A DNA stretch of 64,000 nt from Candidatus Falkowbacteria bacterium. GTDB lineage: Bacteria; Patescibacteriota; Patescibacteriia; UBA11705. The notes under the pieces are model-generated. The model had not been told where the DNA came from, did not search any database, and was given only the letters and a program-made list of their open reading frames with translations. This document shows, piece by piece, positions 7,041 to 37,051 of this stretch (its first letter is position 1; every line of letters begins with the position of its first letter). The translations under genes and the position numbers were made by a program. Location: contig DOZJ01000003.1 of assembly GCA_003518055.1 (NCBI GenBank), positions 2,046-66,045 on the forward strand, read 5' to 3'.

Positions 7041-7061
7041 TCTAATTAACATTACTATAAT

Positions 7062-7469
7062 ATGAAAGAAATTTTTGAAACCCCAAAAACCGGCAGTGAA
7101 AAACCAGAACAAGAAAAGCCGGCTTTGATAGAAAGATCAAAGCAAGGGAAGGTGGAAAGAAACGCTGAAGATACCAAAAGGGGGCTCCAAGATATAGAAC
7201 GGCTGCGAGAGGAGCTACTTCAGATAATTGGAACCGATAGCTTGAGACGTAAACAAAATGCAACAAGACATGAGGGACGTGATACGAAACGGGAAAGTAA
7301 ACCGATTGGTTCATTCAAGATGTTGAGAAATTTATGGAAAGTGACGCCGCCGGAGGCCAAGACCATTTTGCTCGGCGAATTTTTGTTTAATCCGAATCGG
7401 TTGCGCGAGAGATATGAAGCGGAAAAGGATTTTCAGCAAAATATGGGCGCCCGGTGGAAAAAAGAATAA
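7062..7469 (+). CDS. Hypothetical basic/acidic protein (135 aa). It is the intact paralog of the decayed copy at 9554..9921
   Basis: ORF with a C-terminal block LWKVTPPEAKTILLGEFLFNPNRLRERYEAEKDFQQNMGARWKKE. That block recurs, disrupted, at 9775-9921. Confidence 0.55.
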   Translation: MKEIFETPKTGSEKPEQEKPALIERSKQGKVERNAEDTKRGLQDIERLREELLQIIGTDSLRRKQNATRHEGRDTKRESKPIGSFKMLRNLWKVTPPEAKTILLGEFLFNPNRLRERYEAEKDFQQNMGARWKKE

Positions 7470-7479
7470 AACTGAAAAT

Positions 7480-7730
7480 AAAGTGTCATACTACCCGCCT
7501 ACGTTACACCCTCAGCATGACAAGAGGGTTATGCTTCCCGCCTACGTTAAAACTCCGGCGGGCAGGCGAGAGCCCTGCCTACCGGCAGGCAGGCTCAGCA
7601 TGACAAGGAATTTGGGATTATGCTTCAAGAGCCTTAGTATGACAAGGAGTTTTGGGATTATATTTTCCGCCTACGTTAAAACTCCGGCGGGCCGGCAGCC
7701 TCGGTATGACAAAACGAGAAACTCCAGATA
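7480..7730. repeat. Composite intergenic repeat cluster
   Basis: A 26-nt exact direct repeat CCGCCTACGTTAAAACTCCGGCGGGC occurs at 7538-7563 and 7667-7692. CATGACAAG(A/G)G-type and TTTGGGATTAT sub-repeats are also present, plus a GC hairpin CCTGCC-taccggca-GGCAGG near 7574-7593. Confidence 0.8.
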
Positions 7731-7811
7731 ACAAAAATCGGAATGATTCAAAAAAAAGGAAAGTAAAAATAAACAAGGTCATTAAACAAAACAAATATCC
7801 CCCAAGAATGG

Positions 7812-9464
7812 TTGGCAACTTCAGACCCAGACAACCAACAAACAGCTGAAAGTCAATCTCCGGAAAAACAAAGAATTGAAGCTCAAAAGCGGGAAGTGAT
7901 AACTCGTGTCGAGCAGTTTTTGGATAAATATTTAACCGGTGAGTGTTCAGAATTTATGGCCGATTCTGATGTTGATTCTATTTTTGATTGCATAGAAGTC
8001 GGGAGTTGGGGTGTCTCATCGAGGGAGTATTATCATTTTGAAAATGATGATGGTGAAGAACAGGAAACTCGGGAAGATGTGGCGCGGCAAAATTTAATCA
8101 AATTGGACAATCTAAGACGAATTGCCAAAAGATTAATCGACGCGGCTGATGATATTGAAATTACGAATGACGGTGTTAATTCTGTTGAATTTAAAATAAC
8201 AATGCCATTCACTGTTTTTGCGTCAAAATATCGTTCTCGTTTGGTGGAGATAAAAGCAGCAACCATCTCGGCCGATAAATTGAAGATCCAGATCAACGGA
8301 GGAAGCGGCGGTAAACTTTATTATAACGATCGTCAAGCTGACAATTGGGATAAAACGGGAAAGGAATGGGTGATAATAGATGATTTGACGGACAAGGTGC
8401 GATCGGGGGAACTCGAGCCGGCGGCGGCTGAAGAATTAGAATCCAACCATTTGTTCATGGATTTGTCACGTTTTGATCGAGAAAAGGTTTACGCGCAGAT
8501 TCTAACTAAATACGCTCAACTTTTGGAGGCGGAAACGAAGCTTACTGATGAATTGTCATCATTACGTAGATTGTATCAGGTGGCGCTTGATTATGGCGCG
8601 AAGTCTTTGGTTAAGGAAGTCTTGGTTCAAGCCACGCAGGGAGATGATGAGTTAATAAAAAATCGGCGGTGGATTCGCCGGTATCACGGCAACAAAACCT
8701 TGGCCCAGTTGAATGAATTTATTAAAGATAAACCAAAAAAATTGACGGAAATGGACGCGGAGCGCTGGCGGCTACACCGTTTCATCGAGCGGTTCGCGTT
8801 TTTATATCAATTTGGCCGGAATAAGATTGATGTGAAATATGATCTGGAAGCGCGATATAATCAGATTCATAATGAATCGATCAATATTGATGGCAAGATT
8901 TATTTGAATATTACAGACGACAGTTATACGATTTATTTTGGCGCCGGCGGATTTACTTCAGTTCGTTGGGATTCTCTAGTTCCAGCGCCGATTCCCGGTT
9001 ATAACAGTTATATCGCGGAGGGAAATTCATTTGACGATGATAAGCAGATTGCTGATGAATGTAGTCAAAAATTACGAGGAAAATTTATTGATACTGATAT
9101 AGTGAATCAGATCGGGGTCCACGGATCCACTCACGAAAAATGGGTGGATAGTGACATTAGAATTGCCAGAAAAGATATTATAAATTGGTGTAAAGAAAAT
9201 GAGCTTGATGAACGTGAAGCGATTGACATGATTGCGGCCATATTCAAAAAGACGGTTGAACAAGCGCGGATCAAGGGGATAACAAAAAGCGTTGCAGCCA
9301 AACAAAATAACTTACAACCACCAATTGAAGAAAAATCGCAATTAGACGAATCGAGCGATGAACCACTGGAAGTTCCTCGATCAAATGAGCCGCGATTTGC
9401 TGCTAGTATTGGAGATTTGATTAAACAAAAAAAACCGCAAAAGTCCGGACAGCAAAAGAAATAA
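7812..9464 (+). CDS. Hypothetical acidic protein (about 550 aa)
   Basis: Long uninterrupted ORF. The start is uncertain: TTG at 7812, with no in-frame ATG until well downstream. No recognisable catalytic motif. Confidence 0.6.
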   Translation: MATSDPDNQQTAESQSPEKQRIEAQKREVITRVEQFLDKYLTGECSEFMADSDVDSIFDCIEVGSWGVSSREYYHFENDDGEEQETREDVARQNLIKLDNLRRIAKRLIDAADDIEITNDGVNSVEFKITMPFTVFASKYRSRLVEIKAATISADKLKIQINGGSGGKLYYNDRQADNWDKTGKEWVIIDDLTDKVRSGELEPAAAEELESNHLFMDLSRFDREKVYAQILTKYAQLLEAETKLTDELSSLRRLYQVALDYGAKSLVKEVLVQATQGDDELIKNRRWIRRYHGNKTLAQLNEFIKDKPKKLTEMDAERWRLHRFIERFAFLYQFGRNKIDVKYDLEARYNQIHNESINIDGKIYLNITDDSYTIYFGAGGFTSVRWDSLVPAPIPGYNSYIAEGNSFDDDKQIADECSQKLRGKFIDTDIVNQIGVHGSTHEKWVDSDIRIARKDIINWCKENELDEREAIDMIAAIFKKTVEQARIKGITKSVAAKQNNLQPPIEEKSQLDESSDEPLEVPRSNEPRFAASIGDLIKQKKPQKSGQQKK

Positions 9465-20201: not shown

Positions 20202-21050
20202 TTCTCGATGTGTTTGTTTAAGGATTATGAACCGATGATTGGGTTTATGTAATCACGTTTAATGAGCGTGATTTTTTGTCCTCTATTTTACTCCACTATT
20301 ATTTTACGACACATGATTATTTTAAAGTTAATTTTGAGTGGGAGATGAGTGAAGTTGTGATGAACTAATGAACTAATAATACAAAGAGGGGGAGAAGAGT
20401 ATATTCGAAATAAATAAATTTATCTTTGTTAAATTTAAAATTTAGAATTTTTTTGTGGATAACTCATTTAGACTTTTTATCATTTATTTTGTTGTTGAAT
20501 GTGGTTGTTCTGTACTGATATTAGATAAAATAAGGCTCAAAATCGCGCTATAACGCTTGATTCTCCGCGGTTGATGGTTTGTTACCATAAAATAATAATA
20601 AATATTGATGTATAGTTACGTAATAGCACGTATTTTATAGTTAATTTTGAACGCGACACCCCCCTGATATTTTGGCTAGAATTACAATAAAAATGACCCT
20701 CAAAATTGAGTTGTGTGAGGCGATTCATTTCTTTGTGACTAAGTACATGCGGATAGTATGGAATAAAGTGGAATATAACCATTTGATCGAAAATGAGGTG
20801 TAGTGTCGTAAAAGATATATTTGGCGACACTACATCCGATGTGATTTACTGGCAGCGCGGTGCTGGAATTAGTTGAGCCTCACCGAGTAAATTTGATGAG
20901 GTTGAATGCGGTGCATATGTTTCGTCCCCCATTCTTTCGATTTCAGCGGCGTCTAAAATTTACAGAATTGCAATAGATTATATTTATCAACAGTTCCCCG
21001 TGACGCTATTGGTTATAAGTGTTATAATATAGGTGAAAAAAAACAAAAAT

Positions 21051-23210
21051 ATGCCAAAAATAAATAGTTCAACTTTACGGAAAAGGAAAAAAATCGCAAT
21101 AGCGTCACTTCTATTGTTTTTTGTAGTTTTTGCGAGCGCAGCTTGGATTTTTTTACCCAATGATCCGGCTGAGGCCGCGGCTACAGATATTTTAATCAGT
21201 GAAGTAAGAGTTTCACCAGCTCAAGTTAGCCCAAATTTACAGCCAAATCCATCATACGAAACATGGACATCATCCAGTCAGCTAGAGCCATGGTATGATA
21301 TGAATGAAGATGAGGTCGCGGATGTTGATGAATATTGTGATTTTGACAGCAGTGGAACCAGAAATTCCTATGATAAGGAAATTTTTTCCGGAGGATCAAT
21401 TACGTTAACCCCGCTCGACAAAGATTGTGGTTCCGTCACTGAGGAAACGACAGATGTTTATCACGGAACGTCTGCGGTAAAGATTGTTACCGGTGATAAT
21501 GAGATTGCGACGGTTAAATTTGCTGACGGCTCAAGAACGGATATTGAAGCTGCCACACAATACACTGTGTCTTTTTATGCCAAAGGAAGTATTGGAAATG
21601 AAAGTATATATTTAAAACTTGATCATTTTGATGTCGGGTTTGTGGAACACACGTGGGATTTTGATCTGGAAACATTTGGTGTTAATGATACAATACCAGC
21701 ATCCAGCTCTATGGTTCGCGAATCTATTTTGACCACATCCTGGACGAGATACTCTTATACATTCACCACTGGTGATGAAGCTGGTTTTTTAGATGTTCAA
21801 ATTATATCAGGAGGAACAGGTATAATGTTTGACGGAAGCGCTGATCAATCAAATCAAACATTTTATATTGATGCTCTTCAGGTTGAGGCTGCAGCGTCGG
21901 CTACCAGTTTTATGTCGGCTGACGTGACAAGCGCGACTTTTTTTGAGCTATATAATCCAACAGCCGCGGCGATTGATCTGAATAATTACAATCTGGAATA
22001 TAAATTTGATGCCAATGAATGGGCTGATTTGGCGGTGGTCTCGGAGGCAACCAGTTTGGCGGCCGGTAAACATTATTTGATTAAGGCGTCCGGTGGTGAT
22101 AAAGTGATCGCAAATGAGGCGACATTTAATAGCGCGTATACCACCAACTCAATCACAATCAGCGGAATGGCGCTTCGTGTGTGTTCGAATTCAGCAGATT
22201 GCGCGTCGACCATCAAGGATACAGTTGGACTCGGTGATGCCACGGTTTACGAAGGTACGGCTATGAGCACCACCGGCTGGAATACAGCGAAAAGTTTTGA
22301 GCGTAAAGCCTACTCAACGTCAACGTCCGTGACCATGGCGTCTGGCGGTGCGGATGAGGTGGCCGGCAACGGCTATGATTCCGAGGTAAACAATAGCGAT
22401 TTTGTGTTATTGACTACCCCTGTCCCCCAAGCGATGGCAGCGACGGCGGAAATTTATGTGGCGCCCGTAACAGGCGGCAGCGCGTCAAGCCAGCGAGCGG
22501 CGCAGGAAAATTATGATATTTTATTAGGATTAGACTTGGATGATTCAGGGGCTGAAGACACGGGAGAGGTCCCTCCTGATGATACTACTATTACTGAGGA
22601 AGAATTATTGATTGAAGAAGATAATGTTGAACCGGATGATCAGACGGATGGATCTGATACTGAGGTGATTGAGGAATCGCCGGAAGAATCATTGATACCC
22701 GAATCACCGGTAGAAAAAAATATTATCATGGAACTTGAGGCCTTGAAGGATTTTATCGCAATTAACGGCGTATTACCAAATGCGGATGATTGGGCCGTAA
22801 TTCATTTTTTGAGCTATGATTCATCCGGATTTGAAGGTGTGTCTCTAAATGATCGAGTCGGGTTGATTGAAGACTATTATGATTTATACGGAAGAATGCC
22901 GAATGACGAGGCTGACTGGGAGGTTGTCTTGTCCATGTCAACCGGTGAGAAAACTGAAGTTAAGATTAATGAATTTGAAATCCGAGCGTTGAAAGAATTT
23001 ATCAGCGTCTATGGCCGGTTGGTTGATTTTAGCGTGCCGCAGGAAGAGCGATTTGTCCACATGGTCGCCTATCATCTGAGGCCGATGGAAAGAAATTTGG
23101 TTTTGGAGAATGCCGCGTTGATAAAATTTGTAACGACATACAATCAGATACCGGATACGCCACTTTTATGGTCAGTACTGAGAGCAATTGCTTATGCCGG
23201 CGTTGAATAA
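21051..23210 (+). CDS. Secreted/anchored lamin-tail-domain (LTD) protein with an inserted jelly-roll-like domain and a conserved C-terminal repeat module
   Basis: N-terminal signal/TM. LTD signature is split (DILISEV ... FFELYNPTAAAIDLNNYNL ... SFERK ... GNGYDSEVNNSDF). An acidic linker precedes a C-terminal ~175 aa homologous to the C-terminus of the 2317-aa neighbour. I prefer the ATG at 21051 because TATAAT sits at 21023-21028. The track start is GTG at 21033. Confidence 0.8.
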   Translation: MPKINSSTLRKRKKIAIASLLLFFVVFASAAWIFLPNDPAEAAATDILISEVRVSPAQVSPNLQPNPSYETWTSSSQLEPWYDMNEDEVADVDEYCDFDSSGTRNSYDKEIFSGGSITLTPLDKDCGSVTEETTDVYHGTSAVKIVTGDNEIATVKFADGSRTDIEAATQYTVSFYAKGSIGNESIYLKLDHFDVGFVEHTWDFDLETFGVNDTIPASSSMVRESILTTSWTRYSYTFTTGDEAGFLDVQIISGGTGIMFDGSADQSNQTFYIDALQVEAAASATSFMSADVTSATFFELYNPTAAAIDLNNYNLEYKFDANEWADLAVVSEATSLAAGKHYLIKASGGDKVIANEATFNSAYTTNSITISGMALRVCSNSADCASTIKDTVGLGDATVYEGTAMSTTGWNTAKSFERKAYSTSTSVTMASGGADEVAGNGYDSEVNNSDFVLLTTPVPQAMAATAEIYVAPVTGGSASSQRAAQENYDILLGLDLDDSGAEDTGEVPPDDTTITEEELLIEEDNVEPDDQTDGSDTEVIEESPEESLIPESPVEKNIIMELEALKDFIAINGVLPNADDWAVIHFLSYDSSGFEGVSLNDRVGLIEDYYDLYGRMPNDEADWEVVLSMSTGEKTEVKINEFEIRALKEFISVYGRLVDFSVPQEERFVHMVAYHLRPMERNLVLENAALIKFVTTYNQIPDTPLLWSVLRAIAYAGVE

Positions 23211-23224
23211 AAATTTACAAAAAT

Positions 23225-23249
23225 AAAAAGGGGCTCACTCCCCTTTTTT
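23225..23249 (+). terminator. Rho-independent terminator after the first LTD gene
   Basis: AAAAAGGGG-ctcact-CCCCTTTTTT. Confidence 0.7.
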
Positions 23250-23304: not shown

Positions 23305-23513
23305 TTAAACTCGGAAATATTGGCTGGAATATTGGTCTTTTTTTATTTTAGCGATGTTTTTATCCACTTGATGATAAAACGCCGGATAATGCTGCCTGAC
23401 AATCATGCGGCCGCGGTATTTTTGATAATATGGCGGTTTTTGGATGTGGGCAATTTCATGAGCGAGGGTTCTGAGTAAAGAATTGATGCTTTTTGGTTTG
23501 TTAAATATAATTT
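23305..23513 (-). pseudogene. Truncated 3' fragment of the HExxH (SprT/DUF45-like) gene found intact at 31002..31400
   Basis: About 190 nt (roughly 23312-23500) are near-identical to 31010-31200. The minus-strand frame reads ...NKPKSINSLLRTLAHEIAHIQKPPYYQKYRGRMIVRQHYPAFYHQVDKNIAKIKKDQYSSQYFRV*. There is a stop and no start codon upstream. Confidence 0.7.
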
Positions 23514-23693
23514 TTTCGTTTTATTTATCCACACATTTAGACTGTGATCAATAAAAGTGCTATAATAAATGCATAAACTAATATGGTATATTTTCATAAA
23601 GCTGAACCAGTTAATTGTGACAAAAGATAACCAATCAAAGGGTGTGTGTCACTCTATGATTTTTGTTAAAGATAACAGTTTTTATATAAATAA

Positions 23694-26600
23694 ATGATTC
23701 ATATGAAAAAAACAAACAGGCGATCGCGTTCGAATCATAATTTGTTGATCGCGTTTTTAATGGTTTTTATTCTTGGCACAACAGGGTATCTAACTTTGAT
23801 AAAACCTTTGGCGGTTAAAGCCGGGACATCGCCGCTTCTTATCAGTGAGGTGAAGTTTACGGGTGAAGTTGGCGGGAATTATGTTGAATTGTATAACCGC
23901 TCTGGCAGTGCCCTGTCAACGGAAGAAAATGTAGGCGTTCAATACAAGTTTCCCAGCGGCGAGTGGACTAATTTACACGTGGCATTCAGTAATGAATCAA
24001 TCCCAGCCAGTGGATTTGTTTTGTTTGGAACAGCGGGCGGTGACTTAGCTTTTGCCGATGAGGCCGCGTTTAATACCGCTATGGCCGCGAATAATAATTC
24101 CATTAACGGACTTAGTTTACGTTTGTGCGCTATATTAAGCAGTTGTGTCGATGGTAATTTGCTTGATGTCGTGGGTTTTGGTTCAAGCTCCACCACTGAA
24201 GGAACCGCAATCAGCCTCACAGATTGGGACCCGAGCAAAAGTTTTGAACGTAAGGCGATTTTTGATTCGACGGTTGGCGCTATGATTGCCGGTGGCGAGG
24301 ATGAAACGGCCGGAAATGGTTTTGATTCCGATGATAATAATTGGGATTTTGTGATGCAATCGACGGGCAATCCGCAAAATTTATCCAGCGCGGTTGAATC
24401 TTTGGATAACGCGGTATTTGAAGATGTTGTTCCCTTTATAGATCATGGACAGGTTTTCAGTTATCATGATAATGCGGATTTGTATTTGTTTGCCGCCATC
24501 TATGATGATAGTAATATTGCAACCACAGGAGCAAAAATATTTTATCGTGTCGGGACCAGCGGTGTTTTTACACAGGCTGACTCAACCAAAACCGTTGGGG
24601 CGTATGATCTGACAGGGTCTGCCTGGTATGCTTTTGTTATTCCCCAAGCAAGTTTGCAAAGCGCTGTTTCCGGGGGCGGAGTAGTCCAGTATTATCTTCA
24701 GGTGACCGATGGCGAAAATACAGCAACAATGCCGGATTACAATCCCAGCACCACGCCATTTAATATTGGCGTGACGGATGACTATGCCGGAGTTAAGTCA
24801 TTTTCCGGGGTGATAACCGATAGTCAGTTGAATTTTGTAAGGGCTTTGGTGCTTATAGAGAATTCAGGGTTTTATGCTGTTTCAAGCGCTGAGAATGGGG
24901 CTTACAGTTTCAGCAGTTTGCCAACTTCATATGAACCTGATGGGGCTTATCGGGTGATAATGGTGGCGCCAAATTATAGCTCTGCAATGGTAAGCGGCAT
25001 GAATGGATCTACGACTGTGAACGCGCAACTGCCGTTGTCATATGGGGATTTCGGTGGCGGAGACTTTGTTGGTCCTTATGTCAACTATACCGCTCCGAAC
25101 GCGGAAATGTTTGGAGCCCCGGTGGCGATATGTAATTTAAATACATCCCCGGAATCTCTGCCTGCCGGAGTAAATTTTTGTTCACCTATAATGGTCGGTT
25201 TTTCTGAAGCAATGAATAGCGGTACGGTTAATACGACAAATGTGAAACTGTACAATTTTACGACCAGCGCTTATGTTGACAATTTAGGGATAACAGCTAC
25301 AGCCCAAGATAATGAGTTTCAGGTTTTTTCCACCACTCCCCTGTCCGTCAATACGACATACGCTTTGATTTTAACCACGGATGTTCGAGATCAAGCGGGA
25401 AATGCTTTGGTGGGAAATCGAAGTGACGGTAGTTATGAAATTACTTTTACGACGGGAGGGGCGGCTTTTACCGGTGGTGGTGGTCAAACCTTCGGTTCCG
25501 GTCAGTTCCAGCCACCGTTTGTGCGAACGGTCAGTCCGAATTCAGGATCTTTTAATATCGCCATGAACGCCAATGTGTTGGTTGATTTTACGACGGCCGT
25601 AAACGTTGAAAGCGCCAACTTGGCTCGGGTTAATTTGGTCGATTTGGATTCGTCTGAGGTTGTGAGCTTGACTCGCACCTACAGCAACGATAAAACAAAA
25701 ATTATTTTAAATCCGAATTCAACTTTATCAGCTAATCAAGACTATGAAATTCGAGTTGCGGGCTCTTTTGAAAGTAGTGTCGGAGTGACGTTGGGAGATC
25801 CGCAAAACAGTCAGAATACGGATGACTACGTTTTCTTCCGCTCGTCGTTTACCACCGGTTCAACTTTAGATTCAACCGGACCGAGAGTTTTGGGCACGCT
25901 TCCGGCATCAGCTCAGACTGATGTGGCTGTGGGTTTGGGTTCGATTGAGATTGGCGTAAGCGAATCTCTTGATGCGGCGACAGTTAATACGTCAAATGTC
26001 ACCTTTAAACGAGGGAGCACGAATATTGCCGCCGATATCGAGTACGATGAAGCGTCTAAAACAATTCGATTGTTCCCTTCCAGCGCGTTGACGGCCAATG
26101 CCAGTCATACTGTAGCCGTCAAAACCGATGTGACTGATATCAATGGCAATGCTTTTAACAGTGATAATGACGGTACAAATGGTGAAGTTGATGATATTTA
26201 TACTTTTCAATTCACGACTTCCAGTACAATTGAAACAACCGCTCCGACGGTAACGAATGTCCGGTGCGATGATTATCAGTGTGTCGTGACATACAGTGAA
26301 GCGATGAATCGAGTGACAGTGACAGATACAACCGATTGGGTTGATAGTGTGGGAAAATGGGAAACCAGCGTCTTGAATAGGCTTAATTATAGTATTTCCG
26401 TTGATAAAGGGGCTGGATTGGCTACCGTGGACATAACAGAAGCGACTTTTAAATATGATGGTAATACCAATAGCGTAATTATATCCAATTTAAGGTTATA
26501 TGAAGATGTGGTTGATCTTAACAATCCGGTTCCATTAACTTTGTCGGTTTATAATGCGGCCGGCCCGGCTGATGGCGTGAGAGATATTGTCGGAAATGTC

Positions 26601-29600
26601 ATTGCCGCTTCAATCAGTATTAGCGGTACAGTTGAATCTAGCGCTCAAACCCAAGGTTTCATCGGGCCGGGCGCGACCGGGTTTGGCACGTCAGGCGTGA
26701 GCGATTTTGGAATGCATAGCGCGGCTACCATGGGCGAGAAACCAATTGGAGTTTTTCCGATGAATTCACTGGCCGGTGTAACCTCTCGCTATTTTGTTGA
26801 TTTGCCTGTGACCACGGTTATTCCGAACGGTGGAAAAATTGAATTAACATTCCCCAATGGATTTGATATTACAAATGCGGTGATTGATACCAACAGTCCG
26901 ATGAATAATGATATATCTCGCGGTTCTTCCACCATGACTTTGTCTTGCGTGGGAACTCAAGCAACGAGAACCATTACCTGTACGACTACCGGTGCTTCTG
27001 ATGCCAATGATTATTTATCTTTTGAATTAAAAACTATAATTAATAGTTCTATTCCCAAAGATTTCAACACTTCAGGTTATACGGTTGATGTTAAAACCAA
27101 GTCGGCTGATGGTTTGACTCTGTTGGAATCAATGACGACCATGCCGTTTTTCGTCACCGCGGCCGGATCCAATTCTATCACGGTCAAAGTTTATGCCGGC
27201 GGTCAGCTCGATGCCACCACCGGTACGGATGATATTGATGATGTAACCATGAATTTGTTTGTCGGTTCCCCCATGACCGGTCCCATGGATCAAACGATTA
27301 CTTTTACTAACGGCTATGCGACAACAACGATCAGTAATTTACCCGCCGGCGAATACTTTGTCTTTACCGAGCCATCAATGACAATTGGCGCCAACGAATA
27401 TGTCGGGGTGTCACCGGAGCAATTTTCACTAAATAACAACGTTACCAAGTCATTTTCGTTGAGTAAAATGGATAATTCAACGGCGGCGCCGCTGACAGTC
27501 AAGATTACCGGGGCCTTTGGCGAGACTGAAGATATTGATATTTTCGCCGGTAGTTCCAAGGGCTTTGTGGTCAAAACAATCAGTGATATCGGGACCGTAA
27601 CAAATCAGTCTTATACATTATATTTGCCTTACAACAGCGATTGGAGTATCGGTCTCGGGCCGGCAATGCCGAAAGGCGCAATCAGCGGTCAAGTCGCCAT
27701 GCCCGATTGGATGCCGCCGAAAAATAAAATGGTTCGAGTGACCGGCGTGGGCGAGACAGTCGCTTTGACCAATATGGAAACGCAGGCTGATGTTACCAGT
27801 GCTGGAGTCTCATTTACGGTGGCCTCTGCCGATTATCAAATTAACGGTTCGGTGGTTGACGGCAATGATCAAGGAATCGCTAACGCGGAGCTGTGGGCTT
27901 ACCAACCAATGGGTTTTGGCGGCAGCGGTAATAACACTCGAGCGACAACCGGCGGCAACTTCTCATTGAAGGTAGCGGAGTATGGAACGTACAAAGTAGG
28001 CGCCTTTTTACCTGGTATTCCCCAATCACCGGAATTAACATTGGAGGTAAAAGTTAACACCGGCGCCATTGATGGTAACGCCTCAGCGGATGTTTATCTA
28101 AACGGGACATTGATAACCGCTGGTAGTCCGTTTAAAATAAAATTAAGGAAAGCTGATTACACCATATCGGGTAAAGTGACGGATTCCAGCAACAATCCAA
28201 TGCAATACGCGCCGATTTGGGCCGAGGAATCCACCACGAAACAGACGGTTAACGCCATGACCGATTCCAGCGGAAATTATGTGCTTTATGTCGGTAATGG
28301 TACTTGGGTTGTCAGATCGGCGGTGCCTTTCGGTTCCAATATTTGCGGCAGTCTGACTAAAACGGTGACAATTTCCAGCGCATCCAAATCCGGTCAAAAT
28401 TTGCAACCATCATCAAGCACTTGTTACACTTTGAGCGGAACCGTGACTATTGGCGGATCGGTTGTTACCGGCGCCCCGGTGTTTATCGATGAATGGTCAG
28501 GGACGCTGGCGAGCGGTAATCCAATCGGGGTTTTTAGAGACTCGCGAACAGATTCCGCAGGACAATATTCGACACGAATTTCGAACGGCACATATCGCGT
28601 TGGGACTTGGTCAGAGGATTATGGCGAGCGGGCTATTTTAGTCACGGTTAATGGCCAGGATTCAACGGCAAATCATATCACTGTAGAGGTGGCTGATTTA
28701 AAAACATTGACCGTTAATTTTACCGGTGGCGCCAGCGACATGACTGGTTTCATGGAGGTGCGGAACGCCACAAGCACTGAACGCCGCGGTCGTCCGATCA
28801 ATGATTTATCGAATGCTGAAATTATTCAAGTTAGCGCCGGGACTTATAATGTATTTGTTCATATTGACGGTGTGGGTGACTTTAGCCAAAGCAGCGTTGA
28901 TTTAACCGCTAACGCCGTTATTACATTCAATGTGTCATCAGTGACTCGATTTGGCATTACAGGCACGGTCGAGGATGTTGATGGCAATCCGATCGAAAGC
29001 GCTTGGGTTTGGGTTCATGATCCAAATAGCAATTATAGAACAGGAGCAGCGACCAACTCGTCTGGCGCTTATACTTTGAGTGTAAAGGAAGGTTCAGGGA
29101 TGAAAATCGGTGTTGATAAACCGAATTATGTCTCCCCTGCCCCCAGAACATTAAACGTCACTGAAGCGGCTACGATAGATTTTACCGACGCTGAGAATGC
29201 CGCTTTGACCGCGACGAATTATGTGGTTTCTGGTACGGTGACGGGAACGAATTTGACTGAGGGTTTTGTGTGGGCGGAAACCGCTACGGGTGGTTGGTCA
29301 GGTAGTCCGATTGATTTGGACGGAACCTTTTCATTGCCGGTGACAAACGGAACGTGGACACTCAAAGGTATTGCTCCGCTTCACGCGCAAACGACCTATA
29401 GTGGTTCGATAACGATTAATAATGACAGTGTAACCGGTTTAAGCTTTCCTTTGACGGTTGATGTCACGAAGACAGTCAAAACGGCCATAAATTCGATTAC
29501 TCCTTCTGTCGGTGGTGTCATTCAAGACGATACGGTAGGGGCAAAAGTCGTAGTACCACCGAATGCTTTAGGCAGCGGATCGACGTCAGGAAATATGACA

Positions 29601-30647
29601 ATGCAAAAATCATATACGGCTCCGGCTACTGGCTTATACGCGCCGTTATCAGGTGAGTCAGTCAATATATCAGTTACCGATAACAATGGTCAGCAGATTA
29701 CCAATTTAAACGATGACGTGGAGTTGACTCTAGATTATTTGACTACAAGTTTACCGAGCGGAATTTCCGAAGGCGATTTGATTCCGGCTTATTGGGATAC
29801 TACAACAAATCAATGGATCCCGCTCAGCGGAGTGCAGAATTCGTCAGACAACTCATTTACAGCTCAAACCAATCACTTTACCATTTTTGGTGTGGTTTAT
29901 TCCCCGCTGTCAGTAACGACAGCATCTGGCAGCAGTCGATCCAGCCAGGAGGCGTCACAAGAGCTTGTTGATTCGATAACCGGTGATGGCTCTGGTAGTT
30001 CGACATCGATTCCGGCGACTGAAGAAACGACAGAGCCGGAAACCGCAGAACCGGAGTTAATACCCGATGAGTCAGTAACGGAAACACCTGAGACGTCCGT
30101 GGAAGCTGAAGAAGAGATGGTGAAAACATATACCCCGGATTTACCGGCAGAGCGTGATTTGGATAATGAACGAGACGCCATAAGTCGATATATCAGTTTG
30201 GAGAAAGAATTACCAACTGGTGATGACTGGAAGGTTGTCCAATTCATCAGCTACGGAAGTACGTCTGTGACTGAAGTTTTGACGACTCGGGAGCGTTCTG
30301 GTTTAGTATCTGATTATAAGGATTTGTACGGCCATTTACCGGTGACCGAGACTGATTGGAAGGATATAGATTTGATTGCTCGCGGTGAACAACCGACCCG
30401 GATTTTGACGCTTGAGGCATCAGCTATCAAGGAATTCGTAATGATTTATGGTCGATTGGTCAATTTTCAGACAGCAGCAGATGAGGATTTTATTCATATG
30501 GTGGCTTATCGCTATCGAGTGGAACAACGCGATTTGGCCAGGGAAAATACGGCTTTGGGCATATTTTCTAAGGCTTATGGTCATCTGCCCAATTCAACCC
30601 ACTTTTGGTCGGTATTGAGAGCTATATCCTATGCTAACGTGGAATAA
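23694..30647 (+). CDS. Giant surface protein (2317 aa): LTD, Ig-like modules, carboxypeptidase-regulatory-like beta-sandwich repeats and a conserved C-terminal repeat module
   Basis: N-terminal TM/signal. LTD motifs are present (LLISEVKFTG...NYVELYNRSG...SFERK...GNGFDSDDNNWDF). Four modules carry the pattern xVxFSEAMxxxTVNxxNV. Five or more repeats look like Y(T/V)(I/L)SG(K/T)VTD...G(N/A)Y(V/T)L.V..G.Y. An acidic Thr/Glu/Pro linker precedes a C-terminal domain shared with 21051..23210. Confidence 0.85.
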   Translation: MIHMKKTNRRSRSNHNLLIAFLMVFILGTTGYLTLIKPLAVKAGTSPLLISEVKFTGEVGGNYVELYNRSGSALSTEENVGVQYKFPSGEWTNLHVAFSNESIPASGFVLFGTAGGDLAFADEAAFNTAMAANNNSINGLSLRLCAILSSCVDGNLLDVVGFGSSSTTEGTAISLTDWDPSKSFERKAIFDSTVGAMIAGGEDETAGNGFDSDDNNWDFVMQSTGNPQNLSSAVESLDNAVFEDVVPFIDHGQVFSYHDNADLYLFAAIYDDSNIATTGAKIFYRVGTSGVFTQADSTKTVGAYDLTGSAWYAFVIPQASLQSAVSGGGVVQYYLQVTDGENTATMPDYNPSTTPFNIGVTDDYAGVKSFSGVITDSQLNFVRALVLIENSGFYAVSSAENGAYSFSSLPTSYEPDGAYRVIMVAPNYSSAMVSGMNGSTTVNAQLPLSYGDFGGGDFVGPYVNYTAPNAEMFGAPVAICNLNTSPESLPAGVNFCSPIMVGFSEAMNSGTVNTTNVKLYNFTTSAYVDNLGITATAQDNEFQVFSTTPLSVNTTYALILTTDVRDQAGNALVGNRSDGSYEITFTTGGAAFTGGGGQTFGSGQFQPPFVRTVSPNSGSFNIAMNANVLVDFTTAVNVESANLARVNLVDLDSSEVVSLTRTYSNDKTKIILNPNSTLSANQDYEIRVAGSFESSVGVTLGDPQNSQNTDDYVFFRSSFTTGSTLDSTGPRVLGTLPASAQTDVAVGLGSIEIGVSESLDAATVNTSNVTFKRGSTNIAADIEYDEASKTIRLFPSSALTANASHTVAVKTDVTDINGNAFNSDNDGTNGEVDDIYTFQFTTSSTIETTAPTVTNVRCDDYQCVVTYSEAMNRVTVTDTTDWVDSVGKWETSVLNRLNYSISVDKGAGLATVDITEATFKYDGNTNSVIISNLRLYEDVVDLNNPVPLTLSVYNAAGPADGVRDIVGNVIAASISISGTVESSAQTQGFIGPGATGFGTSGVSDFGMHSAATMGEKPIGVFPMNSLAGVTSRYFVDLPVTTVIPNGGKIELTFPNGFDITNAVIDTNSPMNNDISRGSSTMTLSCVGTQATRTITCTTTGASDANDYLSFELKTIINSSIPKDFNTSGYTVDVKTKSADGLTLLESMTTMPFFVTAAGSNSITVKVYAGGQLDATTGTDDIDDVTMNLFVGSPMTGPMDQTITFTNGYATTTISNLPAGEYFVFTEPSMTIGANEYVGVSPEQFSLNNNVTKSFSLSKMDNSTAAPLTVKITGAFGETEDIDIFAGSSKGFVVKTISDIGTVTNQSYTLYLPYNSDWSIGLGPAMPKGAISGQVAMPDWMPPKNKMVRVTGVGETVALTNMETQADVTSAGVSFTVASADYQINGSVVDGNDQGIANAELWAYQPMGFGGSGNNTRATTGGNFSLKVAEYGTYKVGAFLPGIPQSPELTLEVKVNTGAIDGNASADVYLNGTLITAGSPFKIKLRKADYTISGKVTDSSNNPMQYAPIWAEESTTKQTVNAMTDSSGNYVLYVGNGTWVVRSAVPFGSNICGSLTKTVTISSASKSGQNLQPSSSTCYTLSGTVTIGGSVVTGAPVFIDEWSGTLASGNPIGVFRDSRTDSAGQYSTRISNGTYRVGTWSEDYGERAILVTVNGQDSTANHITVEVADLKTLTVNFTGGASDMTGFMEVRNATSTERRGRPINDLSNAEIIQVSAGTYNVFVHIDGVGDFSQSSVDLTANAVITFNVSSVTRFGITGTVEDVDGNPIESAWVWVHDPNSNYRTGAATNSSGAYTLSVKEGSGMKIGVDKPNYVSPAPRTLNVTEAATIDFTDAENAALTATNYVVSGTVTGTNLTEGFVWAETATGGWSGSPIDLDGTFSLPVTNGTWTLKGIAPLHAQTTYSGSITINNDSVTGLSFPLTVDVTKTVKTAINSITPSVGGVIQDDTVGAKVVVPPNALGSGSTSGNMTMQKSYTAPATGLYAPLSGESVNISVTDNNGQQITNLNDDVELTLDYLTTSLPSGISEGDLIPAYWDTTTNQWIPLSGVQNSSDNSFTAQTNHFTIFGVVYSPLSVTTASGSSRSSQEASQELVDSITGDGSGSSTSIPATEETTEPETAEPELIPDESVTETPETSVEAEEEMVKTYTPDLPAERDLDNERDAISRYISLEKELPTGDDWKVVQFISYGSTSVTEVLTTRERSGLVSDYKDLYGHLPVTETDWKDIDLIARGEQPTRILTLEASAIKEFVMIYGRLVNFQTAADEDFIHMVAYRYRVEQRDLARENTALGIFSKAYGHLPNSTHFWSVLRAISYANVE

Positions 30648-35324: not shown

Positions 35325-35682
35325 GTTAAGCATGAACTTTGATATAACCATAACTACCAGACTACGCTGAAGCTACGTCTGGCACAGCGAAAGTTTAGCA
35401 GCAGCAAGAAGGCAGCAACTATTATTGAATTTGAGTTTGTGTCAACCTGAACTTGTTTCAGGTTCTACAAAATCAGATTCAATGATGGTTGTGAGATGTC
35501 TCCAACCTGTCCGGTGTAAATGGTCAAGACCAAAGAACTTCTTAAGCTTCACTCTGGTCCCCACATATCAAAACCGGGACCTATGAGCCGATTAGCGGCT
35601 GACAAAAGTGAAGTCGAAGATCAGCGGTCAAGACCAACCAAATCGTTTTTGGGGCACAGCCCCGCTTCATGGAGGAATCCAG

Positions 35683-36768
35683 ATGACCGAGCAGAGCACC
35701 CGCATCTCCACCCTCGTCGACTACGTCAACAACCACGGCACGTCGATCCGGCCCAACGTCATGGTCGAGTCCGATCTCGTCACCGGGCGCCCCTTCCCCG
35801 CGCGTTTCGCGCGGGTGCTGGTGGCGACCCAGCAGCTGTTCAACAACATCGACGTGAAGATGCTGCAGGAGCAGATTTTCAGGCTCAACGGCGAGCAGCG
35901 CGACGCCGGCAAGCCGATGCTCGACGGCAGCCACATCACGCTCAGCGAGGCGCTCGCGAACGCCGCGGCGGTCATCAAGTACCGCGACGCCATCGACCCG
36001 CTCCTGATCAACCGCGACGCGCGACTCACCGGCTTCCAGGTGTCCGAGCTGTCGCTCGACCCGACGGAGCTGGAGAAGCACCTCGCGGCAGGCGCCGGCA
36101 CGATCGACATGACCCGTGTCGCGGCCTGGTCCAAGAAGCAGAGCCTCTACGAGGCCGCGCTCGCGGCCCGCGCGGCGATCTTCGACGACCTGCGCAGCCG
36201 CGACGTCACCCCCGAGGAGCCCAACGGCTGGAGCCTGGCCCAGTGCCAGACGTCCGACTTCTGGGCGGCCTACGAGGAGGCGATCAAGGCCTTCGCGGTC
36301 GAGGTCGGCTTCGAGTGGGACGGCACGCCGACCACGCCGACTCCGCCGGTCTACCCCGTCACGGTCGTCCGCGTGTTCCACCGGGACGACATGTCGACCG
36401 GCTTCCGGTACATCCCCATGGTGGCGGACGGTCGGCACAAGGCGGCCGTGCAGATCCTCTGGGAGCAGCACGTCGAGTGGTCCCAGGAGCGCCAGAAGCC
36501 GCCGACGTTCTACCGCCGGTTCGTGTCGGAGGTCTGCGTCCCCCTGAACCTGCTGCAGGACATGCTCCGCAGCGAGGGCGTCAAGGACGACCGGCCGACG
36601 GTCGAGGCGAAGGTCTCGAGCCTCGCCGCGTCCCTGTCCGCCATTAGGGACAACCGGAACGCCGAGTACGAGGGCGGCCGGCGCAACCGCGACGAGGACA
36701 ACGACCGCCGCGGCAGCCGGGGCAAGCGCGGCAACACCCGCCAGAACCACCCCTACTCCCGCGGCTGA
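35683..36768 (+). CDS. Foreign-composition hypothetical protein (361 aa) with an Arg/Gly/Asn/Asp-rich C-terminal tail
   Basis: ATG at 35683 lies 6 nt after GGAGGA. 58 of the first 60 codons end in G or C, which marks this as the true frame. The overlapping ORFs in other frames are Arg/Ala/Pro/Gly-rich shadows. It has an internal Pro/Thr linker (GTPTTPTPPVYP) and the tail NRNAEYEGGRRNRDEDNDRRGSRGKRGNTRQNHPYSRG. I recognised no catalytic motif. Confidence 0.8.
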   Translation: MTEQSTRISTLVDYVNNHGTSIRPNVMVESDLVTGRPFPARFARVLVATQQLFNNIDVKMLQEQIFRLNGEQRDAGKPMLDGSHITLSEALANAAAVIKYRDAIDPLLINRDARLTGFQVSELSLDPTELEKHLAAGAGTIDMTRVAAWSKKQSLYEAALAARAAIFDDLRSRDVTPEEPNGWSLAQCQTSDFWAAYEEAIKAFAVEVGFEWDGTPTTPTPPVYPVTVVRVFHRDDMSTGFRYIPMVADGRHKAAVQILWEQHVEWSQERQKPPTFYRRFVSEVCVPLNLLQDMLRSEGVKDDRPTVEAKVSSLAASLSAIRDNRNAEYEGGRRNRDEDNDRRGSRGKRGNTRQNHPYSRG

Positions 36769-36842
36769 CCGCAACCAACCCACCTCCCGATCTTTCCGTC
36801 TCGAATCTGAGGCATCACAAGCGAAAAACTCTACGAACATAA

Positions 36843-36874
36843 AGACCTAGCATTGCCTGGGTCTTTTTCGTTTT
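36843..36874 (+). terminator. Rho-independent terminator downstream of the GC-rich CDS
   Basis: AGACCT-agcattgcct-GGGTCT (6 bp including one G-U pair) followed by TTTTCGTTTT. Confidence 0.55.
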
Positions 36875-37051
36875 AAAAGTGTGGGCTGTTTAGTTATCAA
36901 TTCACATCTGTCAGTAGACAATGATATGTTTGCTATTTTTGTAAAGCCGTTAGTTTCTAGTTGTCAGAAATAGTAGGTTGCTTCGTCGTTACTACGTACT
37001 CCTCGCAACATAAAAAGGATCAAAAAAATAAAAAAAGATGTTGGTTGATTC

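Follow-up and report, generated by a model that had tools for sequence, protein, structure and literature searches.

By its structure model and its motif, the 2317-residue protein encoded in the 64,000-nucleotide stretch of Candidatus Falkowbacteria DNA analysed here (the window; contig DOZJ01000003.1) carries a MAIN domain, and it ends in a module (C-module in what follows) that is widespread at the C-terminus of secreted proteins. We consider it rather probable that this giant protein is a wall- or envelope-tethered fibril, releasable by force, with a predicted self-cleavage in the MAIN domain and a predicted anchorage through the C-module. The features on which this reading is based are listed in Table 1.

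The gene and its domains

The open reading frame is uninterrupted on the + strand from the ATG at position 23694 to the stop codon at 30645-30647 and takes up 10.9% of the window, as a previous reading made from the sequence alone (hereafter the sequence-only reading) had reported with a figure of about 11%; the attribution of a giant multidomain secreted protein to a small-genome bacterium also holds, the host being a member of the Patescibacteria. NCBI record HCC23229.1, a hypothetical protein of Candidatus Falkowbacteria, corresponds to the 2317-aa form; other gene callers use the second Met, at 23703, and obtain 2314 aa. The gene is the largest of its neighbourhood. The terminator-like hairpin that closes the upstream paralogue implies that it is transcribed separately, and no tRNA or Rfam family was found in the whole window.

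Table 1. Features of the giant gene and of its surroundings (window positions; aa, residues of the 2317-aa protein)
Feature	Position	Strand	Basis
Signal peptide, aa 1-43	23694..23822	+	n-region KKTNRRSRSNH (basic), hydrophobic core LLIAFLMVFILGTTGYLTLI, putative SPase I site AVKA|GT
LTD-like (lamin tail domain) beta-sandwich, aa 44-235, also in upstream paralogue	23823..24398	+	sub-threshold Pfam match, paralogue alignment
Region aa 236-482 with one weak CarboxypepD_reg-like copy (aa 371-446)	24399..25139	+	Pfam E 0.0017, 19.1 bits; conserved in L005 orthologue
Three Big_5 bacterial Ig-like domains, aa 483-587, 607-721, 726-842	25140..26219	+	Pfam PF13205
Possible divergent fourth Ig-like module, aa 846-1010	26229..26723	+	hhalign against Big_5 copies: probability 53%, E 1.4e-4, C-terminal half only
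Conserved core, aa 1011-1380, no Pfam match	26724..27833	+	collinear in homologous giants of 2199-3508 aa
CarboxypepD_reg (transthyretin-like) beta-sandwich array, aa 1381-1920	27834..29453	+	copies start near aa 1381, 1489, 1578, 1753, 1843
MAIN domain (microbial GAIN_B/ZU5-like autoproteolysis-inducing beta-sandwich), aa 1926-2070	29469..29903	+	structure model, profile alignment, Pfam hits in homologues
Predicted catalytic motif H2061-F2062-T2063, predicted scissile bond F2062|T2063	29874..29882	+	conservation, model position
Acidic low-complexity linker, aa 2071-2142, starting with conserved SSRSSQEASQE	29904..30119	+	18 D/E versus 1 K/R, pI 4.05
C-terminal module, aa 2143-2317, four ~40-aa helix-loop-helix repeats, proposed cell-envelope anchor	30120..30644	+	AF2, self-hhalign, profile searches
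Upstream paralogue, 725 aa, NCBI HCC23227.1: signal peptide, CBM_4_9-like, LTD, acidic linker, C-module	21033..23210	+	alignment, Pfam, HMM
Two sigma-70-like promoter candidates upstream of giant gene	23483-23511; 23538-23566 (latter with extended -10 TG)	+	consensus scan, 10/12 matches each; pattern matches only
Intrinsic-terminator-like hairpin at end of upstream paralogue	23225..23248	+	sequence scan
Terminator-like hairpin immediately past giant stop codon	30663..30677	+	sequence scan

The gene and its architecture are conserved in related genomes: a second Falkowbacteria genome encodes a collinear orthologue (59% identity across 2303 aa, without frame breaks), and full-length collinear homologues with 25-36% identity are present in Kuenenbacteria and Parcubacteria. 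At the N-terminus, where a TM segment or signal had been noticed, the basic n-region, a hydrophobic core of 20 residues (about 20-22 aa; Kyte-Doolittle maximum 2.37) and the putative SPase I site can all be read from the sequence, and hydropathy agrees; cleavage of the signal peptide is predicted at this site. The adjacent region matches the LTD family (PF00932, aa 44-162) with E 2.7e-5 and 24.9 bits, below the gathering cut-off of 34.3, and the paralogue falls just short of the same value (32.8 bits). The two regions are 42% identical (aa 303-473 of the paralogue), and a profile search of PDB sequences for the LTD gave nothing significant and no lamin-tail match. It is probably a distant LTD member, here termed LTD-like and not classed as LTD.

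The Big_5 family (PF13205) is recognized in three stretches with 89.5 bits overall (gathering cut-off 23.6; single-segment E-values 1.4e-10, 1.1e-10 and 5.5e-15), and CarboxypepD_reg (PF13620) in five stretches with E 2e-29 and 102.2 bits (gathering cut-off 32.3), among them segment matches at aa 1382-1453, 1490-1541 and 1755-1831; there are two further weak copies. The repeats of the giant are only 28-42% identical to each other and no DNA-level tandem repeats of relevance occur inside the gene; judging from these values the repeats are old and diverged, with no recent tandem duplication of DNA. Overall, the domain searches sustain the three Big_5 domains, the at least five carboxypeptidase regulatory-like sandwiches, the acidic linker (by its composition) and the C-module of the sequence-only reading. 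Its lamin tail domain stands as a similarity that stays below the Pfam cut-off, and the fourth of its four Ig-like modules is doubtful, aa 846-1010 having no Pfam match and an hhalign probability of 53%; this stretch is conserved in the giant homologues. A larger block without Pfam matches, aa 846-1385, had gone unnoticed and is collinearly conserved in homologous giants; a word-indexed homology search with aa 846-1480 returned one match. No enzymatic passenger domain was detected, and a phmmer search of PDB sequences with the whole protein found nothing.

The MAIN domain and its predicted cleavage site

The sequence-only reading had also missed the GAIN/ZU5-type domain at aa 1926-2070. The structure model of this region is of high confidence and has the beta-sandwich fold of GAIN subdomain B and ZU5; in it the HFT motif occupies a 4-residue turn between strands 134-139 and 144-149, ahead of the last strand. 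The His is the sole invariant column of the family alignments (A4, A5), the Thr/Ser position is conserved in at least 90% of the sequences, and H-x-[ST] is present in 30 of the 31 family copies. The domain aligns by sequence-profile comparison with the GPS motif 'FWD..W...HLT.FA' of three adhesion GPCRs (the HLT of ADGRF1, ADGRG3 and ADGRG1), and homologues have ZU5 and GPS Pfam matches. A MAIN HMM gave no match in the upstream paralogue HCC23227.1. The SSRSSQEASQE motif, with which the linker begins, is common to the giant, the paralogue and the proteins P0009 and P0016.

Bacterial MAIN domains have been found experimentally to cleave at H-x-|S/T, the pieces remaining associated, and virtually all MAIN proteins are reported to be ordered as signal peptide, adhesion or enzyme domains, MAIN and cell-surface anchor (Brogan & Rudner 2026, a preprint, bioRxiv 10.64898/2026.05.12.724683). 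Patescibacteria are not mentioned in the text or the accessible supplements of that preprint. In the giant, no beta domain comes after MAIN, a signal peptide and ectodomains stand before it, and the C-module lies where an anchor would be expected. By analogy, autoproteolysis at F2062|T2063 is most likely. Not all GAIN/ZU5 domains with the motif actually cleave.

The C-terminal module and the proposed tethered fibril

That the C-terminal module is shared with the neighbouring ORF at 21033..23210, as had been noticed, is confirmed by an identity of 37% (E 2.6e-41). The AF2 model of the module has a pLDDT of 95.1, and self-hhalign recognizes its internal repeats with probabilities of 98%, 97.5% and 94.6%; the repeat pattern is R.L..E..A...F...YG.LP....W..v..IAY. 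The giant fits the traits of the family as a whole, which are a length of ~175 aa and conserved Y-G, P, W, A-Y and R-A-I-A-Y positions; in module numbering, the strongly conserved residues are R59, W80, Y130, E142, W163 and Y171. Its score against profile A1, to which its own sequence had contributed, is 324.6 bits, and a 26-sequence HMM (A2) gives E 1.2e-64. An exhaustive profile search recovered 1183 representative clusters at 50% identity, the named hits being mostly Patescibacteria; a word-indexed homology search with the module alone returned one fragment. Scanning genome contigs with A1 gave four Falkowbacteria loci with the module. It is present on two adjacent genes both here and in L005, and the syntenic locus of one related Falkowbacteria genome holds only the small paralogue.

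Across the family the module is found at the end of exported proteins: in 147 of 150 no more than 5 aa separate it from the C-terminus, and 98 of 124 complete-looking members have an apparent signal peptide. The number of repeats varies from 4 to 8. In 29 representative proteins the module follows a MAIN motif at a distance of 14-225 aa, and its partners are extracellular passengers (fn3, cohesin, CHB_HEX_C_1, HYR, LTD, Big, polysaccharide deacetylase). Some members, such as P0028 and P0044, are little more than signal peptide and module. Cohesin co-occurs with it in 7 of 97 members, and the succession of cohesin and C-module mirrors the cohesin-SLH order of anchoring scaffoldins.

Searches of the C-terminal region (aa 1991-2317) against Pfam at E up to 10 gave no match, and those of the module against NCBIfam at E up to 1 no relevant one; against the PDB, a profile search gave nothing significant and the best Foldseek E was 1.7. 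The C-terminus of the giant (...RAISYANVE) has no LPXTG motif or TM segment, and no profile or motif of known retention devices (LPXTG/sortase, SLH, CWB2, LysM, PG_binding_1, choline-binding, T9SS CTD, PEP-CTERM) matches there. Dockerin, DUF4214-like and PG_binding_1-like identities were rejected, as no profile or fold matched; so was annexin-like membrane binding, the annexins in the Foldseek list having meaningless TM-scores of 0.14-0.18. On these searches the family, for which neither Pfam and NCBIfam nor the PDB holds a relative, appears to be new and is defined here.

We infer that the C-module is probably the cell-surface anchor of its proteins; the best reading, by analogy, is that it takes the place of the sortase signals or SLH domains of other MAIN proteins. 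Some observations run against this. The C-module of the giant is acidic (pI 5.05) compared with a family median of 9.1. PG_binding_1 is also present in two family members, where it would be redundant if the C-module bound peptidoglycan. No phage endolysin fusion, which would have pointed to wall binding, and no other relatives were found in a limited scan of viral contigs, a weak negative obtained with two peptide patterns only.

On the reading of a tethered fibril, the ~240-kDa giant would be exported via Sec and displayed on the surface, and removal of the signal peptide would leave a mature chain of LTD-like domain, sandwich string, MAIN, acidic spacer and C-module. The ~2000 residues of Ig-like and transthyretin-like sandwiches, roughly 18 domains by count, could extend to a fibre of several tens of nm. 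His2061 would activate Thr2063 for an N-to-O acyl shift, and hydrolysis of the ester would cut the chain at the predicted bond; this chemistry is taken from Brogan & Rudner 2026. The two products would not separate, the last beta-strand (TIFGVVY) keeping its place in the sandwich; the 28-kDa C-terminal fragment would carry spacer and C-module. The latter would keep the whole protein on the envelope without a covalent bond, its ligand being the wall itself, a polymer of the wall or some other component of the envelope. Once a host cell or a particle, for instance, is bound to the fibre, mechanical load could draw the last strand from the sandwich, and the 212-kDa ectodomain would come free; such force-dependent release is proposed by analogy.

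An alternative to which we assign a low probability is that the giant is an S-layer lattice protein, with the sandwich array tiling a 2D lattice and the C-module as its anchor. Big_5 Ig-like arrays occur in S-layer proteins, which counts in its favour, as does the full-length collinear conservation across Parcubacteria lineages, since such an architecture suggests a structural role. The combination of a surface domain with a shared anchor also follows the bipartite plan described for S-layer proteins, in which further proteins encoded by a genome have the anchor domain of its S-layer protein as well (bioRxiv 10.1101/2025.04.02.646754). Yet 2300 aa, a beads-on-a-string succession of ~18 domains and a predicted self-cleaving release domain are more typical of fibrillar adhesins, and in the related genome mentioned above the small paralogue stands alone at the syntenic locus. 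The sequence-only reading had named host attachment and S-layer formation as candidate roles; MAIN together with the proposed anchor would speak more for a tethered adhesin or fibril that can be released than for a lattice protein.

It is likewise unlikely that the topology is reversed, with the hydrophobic N-terminus retained as a signal-anchor in the membrane and the C-module acting as a distal tip for binding a ligand or host, possibly shed after MAIN cleavage. The N-terminal segment could be such a membrane anchor, its core being long, and the conserved aromatic and charged residues of the C-module are as expected for a binding site in a module that has no similarity to known wall anchors. 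Against this, the giant, its orthologue, its paralogue and many other proteins of the family have small residues at -3/-1, ~8 residues past the core (AVKA|G, NVSA|G, AEA|A, AQA|A); where MAIN and GAIN proteins have been studied by experiment, the anchor follows the cut on its C-terminal side, and the near-minimal P0028 and P0044 fit the tip of a stalk poorly.

Improbable, in our estimate, is a C-module that serves not as an anchor but as recognition domain for an export or processing system (compare T9SS CTDs and sortase/exosortase signals) or as a dockerin-like docking module. Its nearly strict C-terminal position, the co-occurrence with cohesin and the helix-loop-helix repeats would suit such a function; known sorting signals, however, do not look like a module of 175 aa that varies in its number of repeats and is modelled with very high confidence, none of the sorting-signal models of NCBIfam or Pfam matches, the Ca-binding D-x-N-x-D dockerin motif is missing from the sequence, and no dedicated machinery gene is evident beside the giant gene. 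Finally, there is next to no probability that the ORF arose by faulty assembly or annotation or is a pseudogene in decay, and nothing was found to speak for it: the 2314-aa form is encoded identically on five independently assembled groundwater contigs, which include samples of PRJNA292723 (the four that are listed represent several groundwater samples from two sources, ENA and Logan), the orthologue has an unbroken frame, and two segments, the C-module and the MAIN domain, gave confident folds, so that frameshifts or stops in the ORF are very unlikely.

Significance and comparison with known systems

Patescibacteria represent a very large part of bacterial diversity, and to our knowledge, type IV pili aside, little is known of how they retain and use surface proteins. 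Every member brought into culture lives in attachment to other microbes (PMC11623550). If the C-module is an anchor, the displayed proteins of Patescibacteria genomes would be identifiable with a single profile, which recovers >1100 clusters at 50% identity, and the MAIN domain of the giant would extend force-triggered ectodomain release, so far mainly a matter of Bacillota, to ultrasmall episymbionts. A broader proposal, which we put forward tentatively and with less than even confidence, is that the C-module, with a fold absent from the PDB, is the main lineage-specific surface anchor of Parcubacteria-type Patescibacteria and marks their displayed 'surfaceome'; the giant would then be a releasable attachment fibre, whose MAIN domain lets the cell detach from the host, or leave the adhesin on it, under load.

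Like the Mobiluncus mulieris adhesin (PMC10619420) and the Apilactobacillus 'Giant' proteins (PMC12863079), the protein is very large, secreted, composed mostly of tandem beta-sandwiches and encoded by the largest gene of its neighbourhood. Unlike in those adhesins, its repeats are old and heterogeneous rather than near-identical tandem copies, its architecture is collinear from Falkowbacteria to Kuenenbacteria and Parcubacteria, and there is no LPXTG. The C-module resembles wall-anchoring repeats (SLH, CWB2, choline-binding, LysM, Cpl-7) in being terminal, tandemly repeated and shared by many secreted proteins with interchangeable passengers; as in these repeats and in cohesin-SLH scaffoldins, repeat number varies, several copies occur per neighbourhood, and some members have it after a cohesin. 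It resembles none of them in sequence or structure, however, and differs from monoderm wall anchors in occurring mostly in Patescibacteria among the named hits.

With the GAIN domain of adhesion GPCRs and polycystins (subdomain B with the GPS motif) and the ZU5/FIIND domains of ankyrin, UNC5, NLRP1 and CARD8, the giant has in common the alignable signature 'FWD..W....H-L-T-x-F-A' and a predicted cleavage position between the last two strands. It differs in that there is no helical GAIN_A subdomain, there are no GPS cysteines, and no 7TM receptor follows; the cut would therefore serve release and not tethered-agonist signalling. The giant also resembles MAIN surface proteins such as Bacillus subtilis YfkN (10.64898/2026.05.12.724683), with which it shares the order of signal peptide, adhesion-type domains, GAIN_B/ZU5-like sandwich and, putatively, C-terminal retention element, the H-x-S/T in a turn ahead of the last strand, the large size and the Ig-like or fn3-like passengers. 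It departs from the proteins of that study in that its host is a Patescibacteria bacterium and its cleavage is a prediction, and from other MAIN proteins in that its candidate for retention is an undescribed four-repeat helical module in place of a sortase signal, SLH or known wall-binding domain.

Gene, locus and neighbourhood

The gene for the giant protein runs without interruption on the forward strand from the ATG at 23694 to the stop codon at 30645-30647; its 2317 codons occupy 10.9% of the window, in agreement with an earlier description of a single ORF covering about 11% of it. NCBI lists the 2317-aa form as HCC23229.1 ('hypothetical protein DF272_03555 [Candidatus Falkowbacteria bacterium]'). 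With its start placed at the second Met (23703), the protein was found on five contigs; the four places shown for these lie in several groundwater samples from two sources (ENA, Logan). Because of this recurrence, the objection that a frameshift might be hidden in the ORF fails. Two in-frame ATGs, separated by three codons, are available as starts: the NCBI annotation takes the first, other callers the second (2314 aa), and no clear Shine-Dalgarno sequence was seen 5' of either. The hairpins on both sides of the gene and the promoter-like sites in front of it (see the table) make it look monocistronic.

The giant gene is surrounded in the window by chromosomal genes of ordinary kinds (DHQ synthase, alanine racemase, FtsQ, M23 peptidase, GltX). 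For the C-terminal region of the protein, the nearest genomic relatives are in four Candidatus Falkowbacteria MAGs. At one Falkowbacteria locus (L005) the orthologue has 2547 aa and aligns collinearly over 2303 aa at 59% identity; a small paralogue lies before it, and the M23-peptidase and gltX genes come after it, as in the window. An N-terminal region of ~220 extra residues, similar to the paralogue's, precedes its LTD. At another (L006, Candidatus Falkowbacteria RIFOXYC2_FULL_36_12, 6369-8522 and flanks), the syntenic interval, in the order alr, ftsQ, paralogue, M23, gltX, holds only a 717-aa paralogue, and the giant gene is therefore variably present at this locus. The giants of loci L007 and L008 exceed 2839 aa and have the MAIN domain (a microbial autoproteolytic domain of GAIN_B/ZU5 type) as well as the C-terminal helical repeat module (C-module).

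Elsewhere in the window, at 35500-36900, there is an island of about 1.3 kb with 64-71% GC, against ~30% in its flanks and ~42% in the genome. Of the several frames that are open on both strands, only the forward one at 35608..36768 (386 aa, 'MTEQSTRISTLVDY...') looks like genuine protein-coding sequence; it has no match in Pfam, Rfam or PDB sequences. The island also occurs in two independent assemblies (L001 and L002), called there on the opposite strand, and may have come in as a gene from a high-GC donor.

Domain composition of the giant protein

Features of the giant gene (window coordinates) and protein (residues, aa)
Feature	Position	Support
Terminator-like hairpin closing the upstream paralogue gene	23225-23248	
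Promoter-like sites 5' of the giant gene	23483-23566	
Second terminator-like hairpin, after the giant stop codon	30663-30677	
LTD	aa 44-162	Pfam E 2.7e-5, 24.9 bits (cut-off 34.3)
Weak CarboxypepD_reg copy	aa 371-446	Pfam on segments
Big_5, three copies	aa 483-587, 607-721, 726-842	Pfam 89.5 bits (cut-off 23.6)
CarboxypepD_reg, five stretches		Pfam 102 bits (cut-off 32.3)
Acidic linker	aa 2071-2142	18 acidic vs 1 basic residue

Most of the architecture proposed from sequence alone was recovered by Pfam searches with the full-length protein and with segments of it, with Big_5 and CarboxypepD_reg above their cut-offs; an NCBIfam search added nothing. The at least five carboxypeptidase regulatory-like repeats and the acidic linker are borne out. 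Three of the four Ig-like modules are Big_5 domains, while the supposed fourth (aa 846-1010) resembles them weakly (hhalign probability 53%). The LTD is matched at a sub-threshold score, and a profile search of PDB sequences with this region gave no match. The N-terminal signal is also upheld: a basic n-region and a 20-residue hydrophobic core lead to AVKA|G (the L005 orthologue has NVSA|G and the paralogue AEA|A at the equivalent place), and we infer a cleavable Sec signal. The internal repeats are 28-42% identical and old; no DNA-level tandem repeat was found within the gene. At the start of the linker a short motif, 'SS(R)SSQ(R/E)A(A/S)QE..(Y)D', is conserved in the giant (window 29931-29963, aa ~2080-2090), the paralogue (window ~22500) and two further family proteins (P0009, P0016), perhaps as a site of processing or recognition.

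Pfam models leave aa 846-1380 and aa 1920-2317 uncovered. The first of these blocks (window 26229-27833, about 535 aa), which like aa 236-366 is without a fold assignment, is kept in several Patescibacteria lineages, and aa 846-1385 lie inside the collinear alignments with giant homologues, so that three or four domains beyond Pfam coverage are probably present in it. These homologues, from Kuenenbacteria, Parcubacteria and other Patescibacteria, are 2199-3508 aa long and 25-36% identical; with one of them (P0013) a single HSP spans aa 46 to aa 2316. The comparison with related genomes thus indicates that the protein is conserved, rather than a chance succession of domains, and for this reason a structural, S-layer-like role is still a live alternative. 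Overall, the observations of the sequence-only reading are confirmed, and its interpretation is in part supported.

The MAIN domain and the C-terminal module

The reading we prefer, that of a MAIN-domain surface protein, involves a domain the sequence-only reading had missed. In many family members the stretch of ~130 residues upstream of the C-module ends in '...T.HLT.FA...', where the giant has 'TNHFTIFGVV'. An iterated HMM built from aa 1926-2075 found the domain in 31 of the 197 sequences searched. The copies are 13-33% identical overall to that of the giant; His is the sole invariant column, and the Thr/Ser two residues on is at least 90% conserved. The H-x-[ST] motif is present in 30 of the 31 copies (HLT 19, HFT 6, HFS 2, HLS 2, HWT 1), at 14-225 residues before the C-module in the 29 representative proteins where this was measurable. 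The fold is identified by four lines of evidence: Pfam matches to ZU5 in 3 of 17 members (best E 1.3e-5); Pfam matches to GPS in 2 of the 17; alignment, at E 0.012-0.12, of the profile ('klaYfDettgeWvplg...takvdHLTdfavv') to GPS regions in ADGRF1, ADGRG3 and ADGRG1; and an AF2 model (pLDDT 93.2, pTM 0.87) of a beta-sandwich, with N-H-F-T located in a four-residue turn before the last strand.

The C-module had been described as shared, and BLAST within the window finds it in the upstream paralogue (37% identity over the last ~250 residues, E 2.6e-41; the LTD is common at 42%). A profile of the last 175 residues of three sequences, searched exhaustively against 1.84 billion representatives, matched 1183 proteins at E <=1e-3 and 982 at E <=1e-10. 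In 147 of the best 150 of the 1183, no more than 5 residues follow the module; the proteins carrying it are 107 to 3508 aa long, and 5-8 repeat units occur in some. Those members that have a name are called 'hypothetical protein' and are mostly patescibacterial, with no precomputed Pfam domain over the module, which was likewise never matched in Pfam scans of 10 and 97 members. The partner domains in these scans are extracellular: fn3 (11), cohesin (7), CHB_HEX_C_1 (6), Fn3_assoc (5), HYR (4), LTD (3), PG_binding_1 (2), Ig-like domains and a polysaccharide deacetylase. A signal-peptide-like N-terminus is present in 98 of 124 complete-looking members; those without it look like truncated gene calls. 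The AlphaFold2 model (54-sequence alignment; pLDDT 95.1, pTM 0.86) is all-alpha, with four helix-loop-helix units, and self-hhalign of the family profile gives four internal repeats (probabilities 98%, 97.5%, 94.6%). Neither Foldseek of the model against the PDB (E <=1e-3) nor the profile against PDB sequences returned anything significant; with no Pfam, NCBIfam or PDB match, this is a large family without a relative in the libraries searched, solved structures included. The giant's own module is acidic (pI 5.05, family median 9.1). No fusion to an endolysin was seen in a limited scan of viral contigs.

Some members from outside the window (P0027, P0035, P0043, P0040, P0060) have an N-terminal cohesin together with an expanded C-module (5-8 separate HMM matches per protein), which suggests scaffold-like surface proteins in Patescibacteria. 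The paralogue (HCC23227.1, 725 aa, window 21033-23210) consists of signal peptide, CBM_4_9-like jelly roll, LTD, acidic linker and C-module; MAIN is absent from it, and it would accordingly be a tethered protein with no means of release.

Comparison with described MAIN proteins

The fold of aa 1926-2070 is exactly the one described in bacteria and archaea, and named MAIN, by Brogan & Rudner (bioRxiv, May 2026, 10.64898/2026.05.12.724683), whose text and available supplements make no mention of Patescibacteria. According to these authors MAIN proteins are displayed on the surface and are cut between a hydrophobic residue and the S/T of H-x-S/T, the products staying stably associated; their near-universal order is signal peptide, adhesion or enzyme domains, MAIN and a cell-surface anchor, the latter being a sortase signal, wall-binding domains or SLH. 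The giant would be exported through Sec and lose its signal peptide. By the published mechanism, and from its fold and motif, its MAIN domain would then fold and cut at F2062|T2063, leaving an N-terminal product of 212 kDa (aa 44-2062) and a C-terminal one of 28 kDa (aa 2063-2317) that the inserted last strand would hold together. Position and family behaviour suggest that the acidic spacer and C-module retain the complex on the envelope; by analogy, load on the fibre might release the ectodomain.

We read the C-module as a retention device mainly because it fills the anchor slot of the MAIN-protein order. Its strict C-terminal position, promiscuous extracellular partners and variable repeat number argue the same way, and so does the placing of the module after cohesin, much as SLH follows cohesin in anchoring scaffoldins. 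S-layer anchor domains, too, are common to many proteins of one genome and swappable (bioRxiv 10.1101/2025.04.02.646754). The C-module is the best candidate for a surface anchor specific to Patescibacteria. Apart from the anchor slot, which a new helical module fills, the giant has its parts in the order of the MAIN proteins of Brogan & Rudner; it is a new patescibacterial variant of these recently described surface proteins.
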